Shown here one piece after another: positions 1,850-34,123 of a stretch of DNA of 37,155 nucleotides (the stretch's first letter is position 1; the number at the start of each line of letters is the position of its first letter). Source of the stretch: a virus (lineage: Duplodnaviria > Caudoviricetes); the IMG/VR virus record IMGVR_UViG_3300025018_000302, positions 1-37,155 of that record. One strand, 5' to 3'. Both the position numbers and the translations under genes were made by a program. The notes under the pieces were generated by a model, which was not told where the DNA came from, ran no database searches, and saw only the letters and a list, made by a program, of their open reading frames with translations.

Positions 1850-2053
1850 ATGTTCGGTAACACTATAAAAAAGCGGGTACTTGCTAGAGTGAACGCCATG
1901 ATTGCCGAAAAGGAAAAAGAATTTCTTACCGGCAAAAAGCAACTAGCGGATGAAGCCTTTGAAAAGATTGAAGCTGTTAGAACAGAACACGAGCAGAAGG
2001 AACGTGAGCTTGAAGACAAGTGTGTCAATGACATATTAGGTAAAATAATATGA
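1850..2053 (+). CDS. Hypothetical coiled-coil protein
   Basis: Tightly packed in operon, overlaps next start. Confidence 0.65.
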   Translation: MFGNTIKKRVLARVNAMIAEKEKEFLTGKKQLADEAFEKIEAVRTEHEQKERELEDKCVNDILGKII

Positions 2054-2295
2054 AAAAAGGATTCACATTAATTGAATTGCTTGTGATCATTGCAATCACA
2101 GGAATACTGACTTCAATAGTAATCGCATCACTCGGTGAGTCACCAGATGAGGATGATAATTATAGGATTTGTGGCAGTGGTGAGTGTTATAATGTCGAAA
2201 GTTACACTAAAGAATCTAACTGTGTCTTTATGGCTGAAAATGAGGTTCGGGTGTGCGGGGATTATACTATTACCAAGCTTAACATTGAAGAATAA
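2050..2295 (+). CDS. Type IV prepilin-like small protein
   Basis: MKKG/FTLIELLVIIAITGILTSIVIASL class III signal with E5, followed by a short Cys-containing domain. Confidence 0.85.
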   Translation: MKKGFTLIELLVIIAITGILTSIVIASLGESPDEDDNYRICGSGECYNVESYTKESNCVFMAENEVRVCGDYTITKLNIEE

Positions 2296-13774: not shown

Positions 13775-14107
13775 TTATTTAATTGCGTTTAGTTGTTTTA
13801 GTAATGCATCCTTCTTCATTTCGTACTTAACAGGGTTCTGAACCTTGTAAGCTTCAATGAGTTCCTTGAACTGTGCTTTGGTGTAAGCCGGATTTCCATC
13901 AGGTCTAAGAGCAACCTTTGATTTCTCAACCGGTGCTTCTTCCACCTCTTCTTCTTCAGAATTCAGTTCATCATCCTGAATTTCTTCCTGTTCTTCTTCA
14001 GAATCTTCAGTTGGAAGCAAGGCTTCGAGTTCTGCTTTAGTAGCAGATTCATCAAATTCAATTCCTTTACTTTCCAATACTTCGATTATTTCTTTCTTAG
14101 TTGCCAT
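13775..14107 (-). CDS. Small acidic protein with HeH/LEM-like N-terminal motif
   Basis: TKKEIIEVLESKGIEFDESATKAELEALL followed by a Glu-rich linker. Confidence 0.55.
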   Translation of the reverse strand: MATKKEIIEVLESKGIEFDESATKAELEALLPTEDSEEEQEEIQDDELNSEEEEVEEAPVEKSKVALRPDGNPAYTKAQFKELIEAYKVQNPVKYEMKKDALLKQLNAIK

Positions 14108-14126: not shown

Positions 14127-14216
14127 CTTCACTAGGGGTGTATGGGTCACGAAACGATTTGAGAAATAGGTGAACAAAACTCACGCCGTTTCACAACCCA
14201 AACACCCCCAATGAAG
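14127..14216 (-). other. Long RNA stem-loop in the 3' UTR of the capsid gene
   Basis: Ungapped 37-position stem with 34 pairs on the minus strand, six of them G-U (C/A mismatches on the plus strand); 16-nt loop. Confidence 0.85.
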
Positions 14217-14228
14217 GGGGTGAGTAAT

Positions 14229-15080
14229 TTAGGCGAGGGTGATATCTACAACTAGGGCTGTCTTTGGAGTCCAAAGCTTGAAGCCAACATAGCCGTAAGT
14301 AACAACTTCCATTCCAGTCTTACCTGAAACCATCTTCTCTTCGAAACGAACGCCACGAGGTGAAGCATAAGTGGCTACTTTCTTAACTCCGAACACTCGG
14401 TGTCCTGAATTAGTATATGTAGTTGTTCCAAGAGTTTCAGAAGCAAATGTTCCTGAACGTACAACATAAATGTCAACGCCATTGTAAACATCCATGAAAC
14501 CATTCTTCAAAGCAGAGTCAGCGAAGCTGAAACCGTTTGTTGATTGAGCTTGCATGAAGCCTGAAACATCGGTGTTCTCAATAACAAGGAACAGACCCTT
14601 GTACACATCTGCATAACCGGCAACAAGACCAACAAGATCGCCCATGATCTGATTGATGTTTGTTGAAGCGAATCCGCCAGTTGGTGTGGTGTAAGTACCA
14701 GTGGCATCTTCAGTAAGGTTGTTGAGAACGAATCGGTCAATCTTAGTCGCAACCTGATAGACAGTTTCATCAGTTCGAGATGCGAACATATCGAAGTTGG
14801 TAAGAATGTCTTCAAAGTCGTGAATGTGTTCAGCAACGATCACTTCATCGGTAACTGTGAGAGTATCATCAGTTGTGGTGAAGTTTGAAACTGAATAAGT
14901 TCCAGCAATAGCCTGAACAGTTGCAGTAGGCTGTGAACCATACGGTGACTGAATTCGCTTGTTGTCAGAACGATCAACCTCACAGATCGCTTCACAAACT
15001 AGACGATTGCGAAGTTGCTGTTCGAGGGTTGCTTTACGGTACTTATCACGATAAGTACGAGAACTAATTGTATTAGCCAT
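14229..15080 (-). CDS. Major capsid protein (P22-coat-like, HK97 fold inferred)
   Basis: 283 aa, follows scaffold-like gene; GFMDVYNGVDIY and YGYVGFKLW C-terminal motifs typical of capsid proteins. Confidence 0.75.
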   Translation of the reverse strand: MANTISSRTYRDKYRKATLEQQLRNRLVCEAICEVDRSDNKRIQSPYGSQPTATVQAIAGTYSVSNFTTTDDTLTVTDEVIVAEHIHDFEDILTNFDMFASRTDETVYQVATKIDRFVLNNLTEDATGTYTTPTGGFASTNINQIMGDLVGLVAGYADVYKGLFLVIENTDVSGFMQAQSTNGFSFADSALKNGFMDVYNGVDIYVVRSGTFASETLGTTTYTNSGHRVFGVKKVATYASPRGVRFEEKMVSGKTGMEVVTYGYVGFKLWTPKTALVVDITLA

Positions 15081-15123
15081 TTTAGTGAATTAAAATTAAG
15101 TATTAATTCACCTATTTTTTGAA

Positions 15124-16319: not shown

Positions 16320-18149
16320 TTATTGGTTATTAACATCAATCGCATTTGCCGGCACAGCTTCAGGTGGTTGTGATGGCATATTTGATTGAACTGGTGCATC
16401 AGCAATTTCAATTGGTGACACTGCACCTGTCATGCTAAGGATCTTGTTAAACAACATCTTAGCATTAGGGTCTGTAAGTACCGAAGGATTAGTGGCAATT
16501 GTTTGAAGCACAGTGGTCAAAGTCGTCATGTGTGATTGAGTGGCTGATGCTTCACCGGTAACATCAACTTCTGATTCCCACACCATCCCTTCAAAATACT
16601 TTTCCCATTCTAAATCGGAAACTTCTGAAGGAACAAATGAACGGACATTGCCCTGTTCAGCCAATTCACCCTGAACACTTTCCTTCGTTGCTTGAACATC
16701 CAGTTGAACCGGAAGTTCGCCCTTCTTCAAAGAATCAATGATTTCACGCTTCACTTTCTTTTCAGTATTTATCTTAATCAGACTAGAATCAATTTGCTTG
16801 ATTTGGTGATCTTCAAGAATACCGACAATTTCATCACGATTCTTCAGTTGCTTCTTCAAGTAAGGAAGCACAAACTTTCGCATCATTTCTTCAATGTGCA
16901 AACCTTTGTTTTCGGTCATGAGTTCAAACAAATCATTTGACTCATTTAGGATAGCTTCAGTTTGTCGCCATGCAGTACCGGACTTTGGAGTCTTACCCAA
17001 CATCGCTTCAGAAATACCTGTGATTTCATTACCAAGTTGCTTCCACTCACGACCAAAGTTCTGCATCTGTGTGATGTCATGAGAACCATTATTGATTTGT
17101 GTCAGTGGTTCATTAGTAGCGTGAACAAGAATGTCACCATTCTCAATCGCACTTAAAGCATTCTGACCAACAAAAGTATCATCTGATGTTTGGAAGATAA
17201 GCTTTGAAGCAAGATCAAGGTGGTCTTTAATCCCCTTCGCTGTGTGGTTGTTCATCCACTGTGCTTCAAACAAATGTTCAACTGCACCGATAGCTTGTGA
17301 ACGATTGTCTTCTTCAATCAAGTGAGTGATCATGTAAGGACTCTTTGCTTCACGCCCCTTTGCTAGTGTGAATTCATCCCATTCATCTTTCTTATCGCCC
17401 TTTGCGACATAAGAAATGACATGCATCTGTTGAACATAAATGTCCGCATCCTCATCTTTTTCAGTGATGTATGACTTTGGCAACTGACCATGAATTTCAT
17501 ACAGTTTGATGTAACCGGCTTTGGTGTCCTTCTTCTGACCATCACGAGTCTCACGAGCTTGAACAGCACTAATTAAAGCAGTTACCTGTGTCTGATCATA
17601 ACCCTTACGCATTTTCAATTGTGCAGGGGTAAGTTCAAGGATTTCAACAACAGGATTGTCGTCAAAGTTTACTGAATCAATAATAATCTTCATCCAATCC
17701 ATCACAATTGGATAAAGCTTCCCATCCTTCTCAACGAATTTCAAAACTGATGATCCATTCTTTGCGAGTGAACGCCCCCATTTATTAAGGAAAGCACCAA
17801 AATTGGTGTCACGCATCCATTGCTGAAGTTTCAGTGTTGCAATAAAAGCCCTTGTTGTATCTTTGAGTTTTGTGGACTTGATTCGGATATCCTTTCTATC
17901 AATATCAGTTGCCCGATACCAAATATTTATGGCACTAGTTACGATGTTGAAGAAAGGCTTTTCCCTTCCTAATGAATCAGTCTCACCTGATGTATGTTTC
18001 GAATTAGCGTAAGCATCAATCTTTTCAAGGTTTTCAAGAAGATTAAATGTAACGTATTTTGATAGTGTGGTTTCGCCTGTCTTGTAATCACTTTCAATTT
18101 TCCGAACCAAAGCACCCACTGCATTTTTCTGTTGTGTTTGATCAGACAT
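16320..18149 (-). CDS. Portal protein (podovirus-type)
   Basis: 609 aa downstream of terL; KPFFNIV, GSSVLKF, EITGISEAMLG motifs and Q/P-rich C-terminal tail. Confidence 0.75.
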   Translation of the reverse strand: MSDQTQQKNAVGALVRKIESDYKTGETTLSKYVTFNLLENLEKIDAYANSKHTSGETDSLGREKPFFNIVTSAINIWYRATDIDRKDIRIKSTKLKDTTRAFIATLKLQQWMRDTNFGAFLNKWGRSLAKNGSSVLKFVEKDGKLYPIVMDWMKIIIDSVNFDDNPVVEILELTPAQLKMRKGYDQTQVTALISAVQARETRDGQKKDTKAGYIKLYEIHGQLPKSYITEKDEDADIYVQQMHVISYVAKGDKKDEWDEFTLAKGREAKSPYMITHLIEEDNRSQAIGAVEHLFEAQWMNNHTAKGIKDHLDLASKLIFQTSDDTFVGQNALSAIENGDILVHATNEPLTQINNGSHDITQMQNFGREWKQLGNEITGISEAMLGKTPKSGTAWRQTEAILNESNDLFELMTENKGLHIEEMMRKFVLPYLKKQLKNRDEIVGILEDHQIKQIDSSLIKINTEKKVKREIIDSLKKGELPVQLDVQATKESVQGELAEQGNVRSFVPSEVSDLEWEKYFEGMVWESEVDVTGEASATQSHMTTLTTVLQTIATNPSVLTDPNAKMLFNKILSMTGAVSPIEIADAPVQSNMPSQPPEAVPANAIDVNNQ

Positions 18150-20899: not shown

Positions 20900-21025
20900 G
20901 GCTCTAGCAGTCATGCTTTAGGGGTATAAAACTTATACCCCATAGGCATAAGCTAAAAGCGAAGCCAAAACTAATTTTTTTTTGAAATGGCGTTGCTAAG
21001 GAAACTATTCAATAATAGGTGAATT

Positions 21026-21553
21026 ATGTCAAAATACGATCACGAAAAAATGACTAAAATCCGACTCGATGGATTGATGTCTGAAGAAGATGAAGAAGCT
21101 TTGGCACTCGCCATTGCTTCTTGGAATACAAAAAAACAAGAAGAAATTTATTTAAAATACGCTGACAAATTCAAAGAAGAAGAACCGGAAGATAATGAAG
21201 AAGTAACTGAAGATGGTAACGAACCAAAGAAAATAAATAAGAAAAATCTTCTTGTTTATAATCAATTCCGCAAAACACTTAAAGTTTCAATGATAAAAGA
21301 AGAGGTGATTGAAGAACACAACTTCACCTGTTTCATGTGCAAGCATCAATACCCCAACAGGGATGATTTCAAACGAAAACATCCCAAAACCACCTATCCT
21401 TTATATATCCGGTCACTCATCGACATTCCCCGATATATTGAAGTCAACAAAATTCTTACTGTGCAAGGATGCCTTGATTCCCCTGATCTTCGCAATAAGA
21501 TGTACTACCTACCCATTTGCCTTGACTGCAAGCCGTCACGCTTCGCTAAATAA
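21026..21553 (+). CDS. Hypothetical protein with CxxC...CxxC (HNH-like zinc site, catalytic residues not evident)
   Basis: CFMC and CLDC motifs; acidic N-terminus. Confidence 0.6.
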   Translation: MSKYDHEKMTKIRLDGLMSEEDEEALALAIASWNTKKQEEIYLKYADKFKEEEPEDNEEVTEDGNEPKKINKKNLLVYNQFRKTLKVSMIKEEVIEEHNFTCFMCKHQYPNRDDFKRKHPKTTYPLYIRSLIDIPRYIEVNKILTVQGCLDSPDLRNKMYYLPICLDCKPSRFAK

Positions 21554-26195: not shown

Positions 26196-26289
26196 CCCCC
26201 GATTTTCCCAAATGGTATAGGGATCGGTCTTGCTTAAAGACCTGAACGGCAAATCAAAAAAATTCTTGGTTCGAGTCCAAGTCGGGGGA
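26196..26289 (+). ncRNA. Array unit 3: tRNA-like RNA in normal order, with the array motif replacing the anticodon arm and variable region
   Basis: Acceptor CCCCCGA/TCGGGGG+A; D arm TCCC/GGGA; T arm CTTGG-TTCGAGT-CCAAG; central GGTCTT-GCTTA-AAGACC followed by TGAACGGCAA. Confidence 0.82.
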
Positions 26290-26310
26290 CATTATAAAAA
26301 TAGGTAACAT

Positions 26311-26434
26311 AAGACACTAACAGCGATATAAAAATATCTTAAACAGGCGGTCACAGGTTCGAGTCCTGTCATGTGAAACTTAGTTTCATGTGTAGCTCAG
26401 TTGGTAGAGCATCTGAAAATTAAAATGTGTCTTG
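26311..26434 (+). ncRNA. Array unit 4: circularly permuted tRNA-like (YrlA/Y-RNA-like) RNA, Lys(CUU)-like
   Basis: AAGACAC/GTGTCTT stem; TAACAGCGA; T-CTT-AA-ACAGG-CGGTC; T arm ACAGG-TTCGAGT-CCTGT; closed acceptor CATGTGAAAC-TTA-GTTTCATGTG; TA; D arm GCTC-AGTTGGTA-GAGC; TCTG pairs with CAGG. Confidence 0.88.
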
Positions 26435-26443
26435 ATAAAAAAT

Positions 26444-27892
26444 ATGGAACACTTAAATAAAATAAAGGTTACAAAGTCAGTTAAGAATTCAGGTCTTTTT
26501 ATAGATAAGCTTCACGCAAATACATCAAAAGGATTGACTGAAAATGGGGCGGTGACTTTCACTGATTCCGGTTCAGCCCTTCTTAACTTTTATGCACAAG
26601 CCGGTGCGATGCGGAAGAATCCTGATAAGGCTTTGGCACTTTTCCAAAAAGCTTTTGGTGAAGACCGATTGAAGGCAATAAAGGTTCTCTTTTACTTGCG
26701 TGATGTGCGTGGTGGTCAAGGTGAGCGTGATCTATTCCGCACCTGTCTTGAATGGTTGGGCGGTAATCATCGTGATGTATTTGAAAACATCCTTCAGTTT
26801 ATTTCTGAATATGGGCGTTGGGATGATATGTTCTTTGACAATGAAATTGTTATTGAACACATCCGAATGCAATTGGAAGTGGATAAGAATTCTGAAACAC
26901 CTTCATTGCTTGCCAAGTGGATGCCGACAATAAACGCATCAAGTCAGAAGACACGAGCAAAGGCACGATGGTTTGCTGAAAATCTTGGAATGGGTGATAT
27001 CGAATATCGCCGGATCATTCGTGGTATTCGTAAGCAGATTAAGACTGTTGAAGAGCAGATGTCAGCAAGGAAGTGGGAAGGTATTGAATACAGCCACGTT
27101 CCTTCACAGGCTTCACGAATTTACCGGAATGCGTTTCGCAAGCATGATGAAGCCCGCTATAATTCTTTCATTGAAAAGGCTGAAAAGGGTGAAGTGAAGA
27201 TCAATGCTTCAACACTGTACCCATATCAGATCTATGATTCAGTACAACGTGACTACTCAAAGACACTTGAAGCCCTTTGGAATCAGCTTCCTGATTACAC
27301 AATGGGAAAGAATGCCCTTGTAGTTGCGGATGTGTCCGGTTCAATGAGTGGTCAGCCAATGTCAGTATCAGTATCACTTGCCTTGTACTTTTCCGAACGA
27401 AATCAGGGGTACTTTGAAGACTGCTTCATCACCTTTTGCGGTAATCCAAAGCTTCAGAAGATTCGTGGTGCTTCCCTTCGTGAACGCATGAATAACCTAG
27501 AACAAGCTGATTGGGAAATGAACACCAATCTTCAGGCGGTCTTTGACCTTGTACTTGATACAGCGGTTGATAACAACATTGAAGAAAGCGAACTTCCTGA
27601 AACGATTTATATCATTTCAGATATGGAATTCGATCAAGCTTGTGAAGATCACACCAACATGGAAGTGATTAAGGCGAAGTACCTTGAAGCCGGTTATAAG
27701 TGTCCAAACCTTGTGTTTTGGAACGTAAATGCAAGCGGTGAGAACTTGCCCGCCCGCCACAATGATCAAGGGGTTGCCCTTGTATCAGGTCTTTCACCGG
27801 TTATCTTTAAGATGGCTGTTGAGAATAAGTCACCAGTCGAAGTGATGGAAGACACAATTAATTCAGAACGCTATGAGCGAATCACCATCTAA
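26444..27892 (+). CDS. DUF2828 family protein (helical N-terminal region + vWA domain; Ro60/TROVE-like architecture)
   Basis: TENGA, LFYLRDVRGGQGER, EYGRWDD, LLAKWMP, YSHVPS, TLYPYQI, VADVSGSM (MIDAS), NTNLQAVFDLVL, IISDMEFDQA, LVFWN; ATG at 26444 preferred over the TTG inside unit 4. Confidence 0.9.
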   Translation: MEHLNKIKVTKSVKNSGLFIDKLHANTSKGLTENGAVTFTDSGSALLNFYAQAGAMRKNPDKALALFQKAFGEDRLKAIKVLFYLRDVRGGQGERDLFRTCLEWLGGNHRDVFENILQFISEYGRWDDMFFDNEIVIEHIRMQLEVDKNSETPSLLAKWMPTINASSQKTRAKARWFAENLGMGDIEYRRIIRGIRKQIKTVEEQMSARKWEGIEYSHVPSQASRIYRNAFRKHDEARYNSFIEKAEKGEVKINASTLYPYQIYDSVQRDYSKTLEALWNQLPDYTMGKNALVVADVSGSMSGQPMSVSVSLALYFSERNQGYFEDCFITFCGNPKLQKIRGASLRERMNNLEQADWEMNTNLQAVFDLVLDTAVDNNIEESELPETIYIISDMEFDQACEDHTNMEVIKAKYLEAGYKCPNLVFWNVNASGENLPARHNDQGVALVSGLSPVIFKMAVENKSPVEVMEDTINSERYERITI

Positions 27893-33815: not shown

Positions 33816-34113
33816 GGGCTTGCAAGGCTTCGACAGTCTTTGGAAACTCATCATTCAAGGGGAAACGCATCAATTCCTTAAAAGGTGCAAAGCATAATTG
33901 CAAAAGCAATTCCAAGTCCTTACAGTCAATTTCTCGGTTTACCGGTAATGGTGTAAGTGTCCGGTGGTCTTTCCCACATTGGGATCACAAGGGCATTATA
34001 TAAATGTGGTGATGGCAATTAAAAATTGCAACGAACGCAAGAACACCAATCAACCTTGTATAAGATGATGTGCGAAAGAAGACTGGACTGGGATTCAATT
34101 TCCCACAAGTCCA
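33816..34113 (+). ncRNA. ssrA: tmRNA; predicted tag (A)AKAIPSPYSQFLGLPVMV
   Basis: GGGCTTG/CAAGTCC+A acceptor with G3-U70; GGCTTCGAC 5' motif; P2 CAGTCTT/AAGACTG; GAC then T arm TGGGA-TTCAATT-TCCCA; PK1 AAGGGG/TTCCTT + GCATC/GGTGC; ATAATT-GCA resume site, tag 33900-33956. Confidence 0.92.
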
Positions 34114-34123
34114 CTAACAATCT

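Follow-up and report, generated by a model that had tools for sequence, protein, structure and literature searches.

The loop of a long hairpin downstream of a phage major capsid gene very probably pairs, as RNA, with a site in the leader of the same gene, judging from the covariation of the two segments across related loci. We found this element in a 37-kb tailed-phage record of 37,155 nt (the window), whose minus strand carries terminase genes, the portal gene, a 189-aa gene, a scaffold-like gene and the major capsid gene (Table 1). The main job of the pairing would be to activate capsid translation by unmasking the start region, a reading that draws on predicted folds and to which we assign a probability of about 0.5.

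Table 1. Positions of the element and of other features in the window
Feature	Position	Strand	Remarks
5' target: 6-nt single-stranded toehold plus first 5 nt of leader hairpin	15107..15117	minus	covaries with loop
Leader hairpin, predicted lock	15085..15111	minus	-9.2 kcal/mol with target, 0.0 without
Long 3' hairpin, 34 bp including six G-U, no U tract after it	14127..14216	minus	37 positions per arm
Loop 11-mer, complement of 5' target	14164..14174	minus	sequence match
Short alternative hairpin overlapping 5' arm of long stem	14203..14222	minus	in 103/114 loci, mirror control 8/114
Portal gene, P22/SU10-like	16320..18149	minus	identity assigned; loop targets at 3' end/leader only in relatives
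Scaffold-like gene, 183 aa	15124..15675	minus	stop 7 nt ahead of 5' target
Major capsid protein gene, 283 aa	14229..15080	minus	PHROG 267 major head protein, E 1e-8
110-aa gene	13775..14107	minus	begins 20 nt past long 3' hairpin
Second loop-complementary site before ATG 21026	21013..21025	plus	kept in L266
Polynucleotide kinase/phosphatase	2-844
RNA-binding protein (phrog_850, DUF7788/DUF2828)	26432-27892
tRNA-Lys(CTT)	26196-26290
tmRNA	33816-34116

We found 3081 homologues of the window capsid protein, and no deposited phage matched it. The scaffold-like gene was named by position and by the acidic composition of its product, for which a family search returned no confident match. A Shine-Dalgarno (SD)-like 4-mer stands at just 4 of 40 window gene starts (starts picked by hand), and the leaders are A/T-rich. 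The capsid gene begins at a non-ATG codon in 17/104 and 12/44 loci, compared with 7/95 for the connector gene; ten of these starts are ATA, ATT, ATC or ACG. Their frequency fits, as indirect evidence, a strong enhancer.

A 42-kb prophage of the same phage family (G001:C22 15397-57230; L163, L258-L260) has an integrase and att repeats in tRNA-Lys(CTT). Defence-like genes (TIR) adjoin this prophage, and the label of the L163 contig makes Blastocatellia a candidate host. A rearranged remnant of the same family (L262-L263; G002:C1 about 507000-519000) lies on a contig labelled Reyranella. The kinase/phosphatase, the phrog_850 protein and the tmRNA of the window occur together in only 1 of 21 relatives. 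A small ORF at 2050-2295 (+) encodes a pilin-type N-terminal methylation motif (PF07963).

At gathering score, Rfam yielded only the tmRNA in the window; between 13900 and 15400 there were only sub-threshold matches, mostly to miRNA-hairpin models, and 10 loci with insertions (described below) gave no match. No description of the element was found in the literature searched, which consisted largely of open-access papers.

Complementarity of loop and leader across related loci

On the minus strand, TTCACCTATTT (14174-14164) in the hairpin loop is the exact complement of AAATAGGTGAA (15117-15107) in the leader. The exact 11-mer is found at these two places only in the window, and none of 5000 shuffles of the 43-nt leader reached an 11-nt match to the loop (the best reached 9). 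The exact 11-nt complementarity claimed in the original prediction is confirmed. That prediction had also proposed a search for covariation of the two 11-mers in related phage capsid loci. Across about 140 such loci (capsid identity 48-100%), the complementarity is conserved and its changes are compensatory.

The loci were gathered in two sets. For the first, we scanned three collections and obtained 171 loci matching the capsid, of which 156 were complete and 104 distinct. We computed the duplex between 18 nt at the stem apex, picked blind to the leader, and the 110-nt leader of the same locus. Cognate duplexes averaged -16.4 kcal/mol, compared with -13.0 +/- 0.27 for permuted leaders (0/10,000 permutations as good), -9.8 for shuffled leaders and -9.7 for coding windows of the same locus, and a Watson-Crick run of at least 7 was present in 80/99 loci. 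The second set comprised 44 new loci, 41 of them with a stem; a query with one distant capsid yielded no usable locus. Here the cognate mean was again -16.4, against -12.5 for permuted leaders (0/10,000), with a Watson-Crick run of at least 7 in 27/41. Three of these 41 loci form an outgroup at 36% identity, in which the element is absent and a U-tract terminator and a merely A/U leader hairpin are found instead. The shuffles and permutations together reject a chance origin of the complementarity.

A MAFFT alignment of 41 whole loci, which was not fitted to structure, gave a further view of the covariation. Its rows are 36 of 43 listed loci (seven were dropped by hand), together with the window and four hand-added loci that carry minority motifs. 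In eight long-range column pairs, 283/328 cells were Watson-Crick, compared with 208 +/- 6 in row shuffles, whose maximum in 20,000 was 233; slid registers reached 84-167 versus 293. We counted 19 classes of matched 6-mers, two of which are register shifts, so that there are about 17 versions, including AGGTGA, CGGTGG, TGGTGG, CGACGG, CGGCGG, TGATGG, CAGTGG, GAATGG, GGGAGG and GGCAGG. On the capsid tree, each variable column underwent 3-20 concerted changes; the register was fitted by identity, so both the class counts and the concerted-change counts lean upward, and relatedness among the loci means that the counted events are not independent. At the edges of the duplex, G-U and A-C combinations are about equally frequent (48 vs 45).

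Three other readings of the site were rejected. The version AGGTGA could be taken for a Shine-Dalgarno sequence, but other versions are not SD-like, the site lies 25-37 nt upstream and the phage is without SD sites. Readthrough or fusion at the scaffold-like stop is contradicted by its phase (32/38/44) and by a frame that is open in only 1/114 loci. Readthrough at the capsid stop would give an extension of median 12 codons in random phase.

Predicted structures at the two ends of the capsid gene

Of 140 hairpins, 12 were set aside by hand because the apex had been mis-picked or the locus belonged to the outgroup; 14 of the other 128 loci lacked a local helix, which insertions explain in several cases but not all, and 114 were analysed.

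In the window, the arms of the leader hairpin are GTGAATTAA (15111-15103) and TTAATTCAC (15093-15085), followed by TAAA and then by the ATG at 15080 (minus). The leader fold has a z of -3.0. A gap of about 4 nt between hairpin and AUG had been predicted and, on rechecking of the coordinates, is exactly 4 nt; the proposed division of the target into a 6-nt toehold and 5 nt of the 5' arm is a geometry kept in homologues. The last 3 target bases are mostly paired, i.e., within the leader hairpin, in 103/114 loci, and a distinct toehold appears in the ensemble in only 44/114. The hairpin ends no more than 10 nt from the capsid start in 88/113 loci and folds better than 95% of shuffles in 74/113. 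Its median fold across 113 loci is -8.9 kcal/mol with the target and 0.0 when the target is removed, and this collapse in silico favours activation. The target starts at -3 to +10 nt from the scaffold-like stop in 88/114 loci, and its spacing is tighter to this upstream stop (IQR 4-8 nt) than to the capsid start (IQR 27-41 nt). The duplex with the loop would end 25 nt ahead of the AUG in the window and about 20-40 nt upstream across capsid leaders. Two copies of the target are held by 26/114 capsid leaders, where 7.4 are expected. Pairing of the target with any part of the downstream leader was not discriminating (106 observed vs 96 in shuffles).

We then considered the computed energetics of invasion, with duplex energies that leave out loop-closure entropy and kissing topology. 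Docking on the toehold was computed to be favourable. Net binding, with no loop-closure cost, was below 0 in 105/114 loci (median -4.8 kcal/mol, window -6.1). With the target blocked, the cost of opening the region from -15 to +13 fell by at least 1 kcal/mol in 84/114 loci, compared with 37/114 for a shifted control, and accessibility worsened in 9/114. The claim that invasion opens the initiation region thus holds as a prediction for most loci, but for the window itself the start region becomes more accessible in the ensemble by only about 1.0 kcal/mol.

The stem after the capsid stop was described correctly in the original prediction: it has 37 positions, 34 of them paired and six of these G-U, at 14216-14127. 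It presents a loop of 16 nt (14179-14164, minus). For the window 3' region, the computed folding energy is -50 kcal/mol (z -7.8) for the mRNA strand and -40.5 (z -3.2) for the opposite strand. A stem of at least 15 pairs is found within 135 nt of the capsid stop in 99/104 distinct loci; it is stronger on the mRNA strand in 113/128, with 511 G-U pairs on that strand and 139 on the other. Stem sequence outside the loop is not conserved among loci, and RNAalifold recovered only 9 pairs of the 3' element, because stem lengths differ.

The short hairpin at 14222-14203, which the original prediction did not contain, and the long hairpin are mutually exclusive: with the short one in place, the long stem cannot form its lower half (-38 vs -50 kcal/mol). 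In truncated transcripts, the computed accessibility of the loop core is 0.75 with the short hairpin and 0.48 when it is blocked. Since it leaves the loop core free, we read the short hairpin as a predicted folding aid, a transient fold that would keep the loop available during transcription. An intrinsic terminator was considered and rejected as a general reading of either hairpin, since a U tract follows the long stem in 2/114 loci and the short hairpin in 7/103; the window's own short hairpin passes a simple terminator scan.

Secondary loop targets and natural insertions

The same loop is, as judged from covarying matches, a multi-target element, with secondary targets near the portal end, at the portal start and in the connector leader. 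The portal stop could be located in 98/128 loci, and near it the cognate duplex averaged -9.2, compared with -5.8 +/- 0.36 for permuted pairs. Duplexes of -12 or below occurred in 44 loci, where 13 were expected, and in 1 in an internal portal window; the signal is restricted to -100 to +50. Among loci with minority motifs, 35/64 have such a site (9.2 expected). The portal-end sites fall in all three frames, at a median of 44 nt before the next ATG, without a conserved second flanking element, and unmasking is predicted in only 1/45. The window itself has no portal-end site.

We also counted cognate sites no more than 100 nt upstream of individual genes in 23 genomes or long stretches. Such sites precede the capsid gene in 19/20 (3.5 expected), the 189-aa gene in 8/23, the portal gene in 4/21 and the connector gene in 4/22 (each at most 1.2 expected); they were found before the scaffold gene in 0/22 and before the terminase gene in 0/17. 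The portal-leader sites in the 4/21 genomes all begin at -17 to -19, with four different motifs. A genome-wide search with exact 8-mers found 9 leader matches against 4.1 expected, one of which is a capsid leader, and a strand-wide energy scan, which is confounded by composition, gave 37 vs 11.8 and 15 vs 5.5; in place of these, we relied on the tests on individual genes. A closed loop around one gene, as originally proposed, is too narrow a description, given the matches at other head genes, one of them downstream of the hairpin, and the portal-end sites without unmasking.

A copy of the target before the ATG at 21026 had also been claimed. It is present, at 21013-21023 (+), with one mismatch and ending 2 nt before the ATG; its upstream position is kept in one of three relatives (L266), while the site lies within the first codons in L265 and is absent in L264. 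Being on the opposite strand, it could be reached only in trans. Close homologues of the 21026 protein were found in only 5/53 other records. The stretch 20900-21025 forms a multi-hairpin leader before this 175-aa Cys-rich ORF, with similar leaders in L264-L266.

Natural insertions separate the parts of the element. Free-standing ORFs are inserted on either side of the capsid gene, with HNH in 3/9 tested. Where the insertion lies past the capsid stop (L021, L098, L145, L061), the hairpin remains adjacent to the gene that follows, up to 600-680 nt from the capsid stop, and 9-12 nt of complementarity are retained over about 1.5 kb. Where the insertion lies in the leader (L027, L059, L066, L167, L061, L180, L204), the target is beside the scaffold-like stop or the capsid start, and flanking stems fold out the insertion in L027, L066, L167, L061, L180 and L204, and weakly in L059. 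Closeness of the target to the capsid start thus appears to be preserved and closeness of the hairpin to the capsid stop appears dispensable, a pattern that favours action on initiation over a hand-over of terminating ribosomes.

Several of these loci have further features of their own. In L021, two copies of the 3' hairpin flank an HNH gene past the capsid stop; the short alternative hairpin is retained in the first, whose loop does not match, and the second has a matching loop and apparently lacks the short hairpin. The inserted ORFs in L027, L059, L061, L145 and L167 have, by eye, a TG-TATAAT-like extended -10 directly before the start, which suggests a promoter of their own. A recurring stem element, whose loop may or may not contain an ORF, lies between the leader hairpin and the capsid start in L027, L059, L061, L066, L167, L175, L180, L204, L216, L232, L233 and L240. 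It consists of a lower stem, an internal loop that is A-rich on one side and G-rich on the other, and a long upper stem, an architecture that we take to resemble boxA/rRNA processing stalks; Rfam gave no match for it in the loci scanned. Of these hand-picked loci, 11/12 start the capsid gene at a non-ATG codon.

Candidate roles of the pairing and known systems

We propose that the long-hairpin loop would dock on the toehold just past the scaffold-like stop and then take the G-rich base of the leader hairpin, which would open. Translation of the capsid gene from the opened, SD-less start region would rise. Before formation of the long stem, the loop would be kept accessible by the transient short hairpin. 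Acting in cis or released in trans, it could also serve the leaders of the portal, 189-aa and connector genes and so tune the ratio of head proteins, with a possibly negative effect where a secondary site overlaps the ribosome footprint. Such an arrangement could explain how hundreds of capsids and about a dozen portals are obtained from one SD-less late operon. In its broadest form, which we consider speculative and rather doubtful, the loop would be a stoichiometry controller for an SD-less host, the bacterial equivalent of the 3' translation enhancers of viruses, but with an address that can be re-coded: it would unlock or deliver ribosomes to the capsid start, even ACG, ATA or ATT, and programmable seed sites in the leaders of the portal, connector and other genes would let it act in cis and in trans.

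Somewhat unlikely, in our judgment, is a main role of the duplex in stabilising or delimiting processed messages: it would block 5'-3' decay or mark a site of cleavage, and nested RNAs with protected ends (189-aa gene to capsid, or capsid alone) would result. This would suit sites that lie near gene ends at a variable distance from the next start, as at the portal end, as well as a target that tracks the upstream stop and a long stem that is so rarely followed by a U tract. The stem is long enough for RNase III. A precedent exists in B. subtilis hbs (PMC5737220). However, stabilisation explains neither why the target overlaps a conserved leader hairpin, which is predicted to collapse when invaded, nor why leader insertions are folded out.

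The hairpin could also be a ribosome-delivery element, as a counterpart of 3'CITEs or a surrogate anti-SD, that binds or recycles ribosomes and docks near several head-gene starts, although we regard this as unlikely. The several cognate docking sites, the SD-like position of the portal-leader sites, the SD-less genes, the excess of non-ATG capsid starts and the leaders with two target copies are all in its favour. On the other hand, the stem sequence varies outside the loop, so that no factor-binding motif is evident, the spacing from site to start ranges from 0 to >70 nt, and the distance that can separate the hairpin from the capsid stop argues against hand-over of terminating ribosomes.

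That the pairing represses seems quite improbable. The leader hairpin would then be tolerated or even helpful, by bringing an A-rich tract beside the AUG, and loop binding would dampen the capsid gene or its neighbours until the stem is cut, as for icaR or T7 gene 1.1/1.2. The known bacterial 5'-3' pairings repress or protect, as far as the available text of the reports goes (PMC3868564, PMC7821165, PMC12697547), and 21013-21023 is one of several secondary sites that overlap the ribosome footprint. Low-copy genes could be repressed even if the capsid gene is activated. In capsid leaders, however, the duplex would end well upstream of the start, and accessibility is predicted to increase in most loci.

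A DNA-level signal before late genes (a late promoter, a protein-binding site or an RNA-guide target on DNA), repeated as an inverted copy in the hairpin, would account for the same-orientation copies before several late genes and for a G-U bias at duplex edges that is not significant, but it is highly improbable in view of the inverted copy, which tops a stem whose G-U pairs are strongly biased to the mRNA strand, of the many covarying versions, which would demand repeated protein co-evolution, and of the portal-end sites without a conserved second flanking element.

Activation by unmasking has parallels among refolding RNAs and small RNAs. In hok/sok, fbi-tac refolding combines end-to-end pairing with a metastable hairpin, and silencing of the toxin is relieved by 3' trimming; the phage element would share the end-to-end pairing and a transient hairpin during transcription, with the opposite predicted sign. 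DsrA activates rpoS as an anti-antisense small RNA. RNAIII does so for hla (PMC7821165). As in these small RNAs and in sRNAs derived from 3' UTRs, a short seed in the phage would bind the 5' side of an inhibitory hairpin in the leader, and there are several targets; unlike them, the phage activator is placed in the 3' flank of the gene that it mainly targets. By analogy, the element would work like an anti-antisense activator within the 3' flank of its own target, and it is a member of none of the families compared here.

The icaR and hbs 5'-3' UTR pairings and the plant-virus 3'CITEs are the systems closest to the phage element. Few bacterial 5'-3' UTR interactions have been described, namely RNAIII, icaR and hbs (PMC7821165, PMC12697547), and a 2025 preprint calls long-range mRNA folding understudied and reports repression. 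In S. aureus icaR, the 5' leader is bound by a motif from the 3' UTR of the same mRNA; this pairing masks the SD, has a repressive effect and involves cleavage by RNase III (PMC3868564, PMC7821165). Complementary 3' and 5' untranslated segments likewise flank the phage capsid gene, but the phage target lies upstream of the footprint, there is no SD and the start is predicted to open; moreover, the phage motif is shown in a hairpin loop and covaries in many versions. In B. subtilis hbs, a 14-bp interaction of the 5' and 3' UTRs modulates RNase Y cleavage and, as in the phage, a short long-range duplex brackets one highly expressed gene; unlike the phage element, hbs as described in the available text involves no competing leader hairpin, secondary targets or phage context (PMC5737220). 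The 3'CITE-5'UTR bridges and PRTE-DRTE readthrough pairs of plant (+)RNA viruses also use loop-mediated long-distance pairing, in which the loop of a 3' structure pairs with a 5' site, and there too a site lies right after a stop codon; in the accessible account (PMC13662761), those elements recruit eukaryotic factors or serve stop readthrough, whereas the phage has a bacterial host and readthrough is excluded by frame.

The natural cognate and non-cognate pairs provide ready orthogonal test sets and possibly orthogonal translation switches. Compared with the known cases, which repress or protect in the reports cited, the phage element is set apart by its predicted activation, its several targets and its unusually strong evolutionary support.
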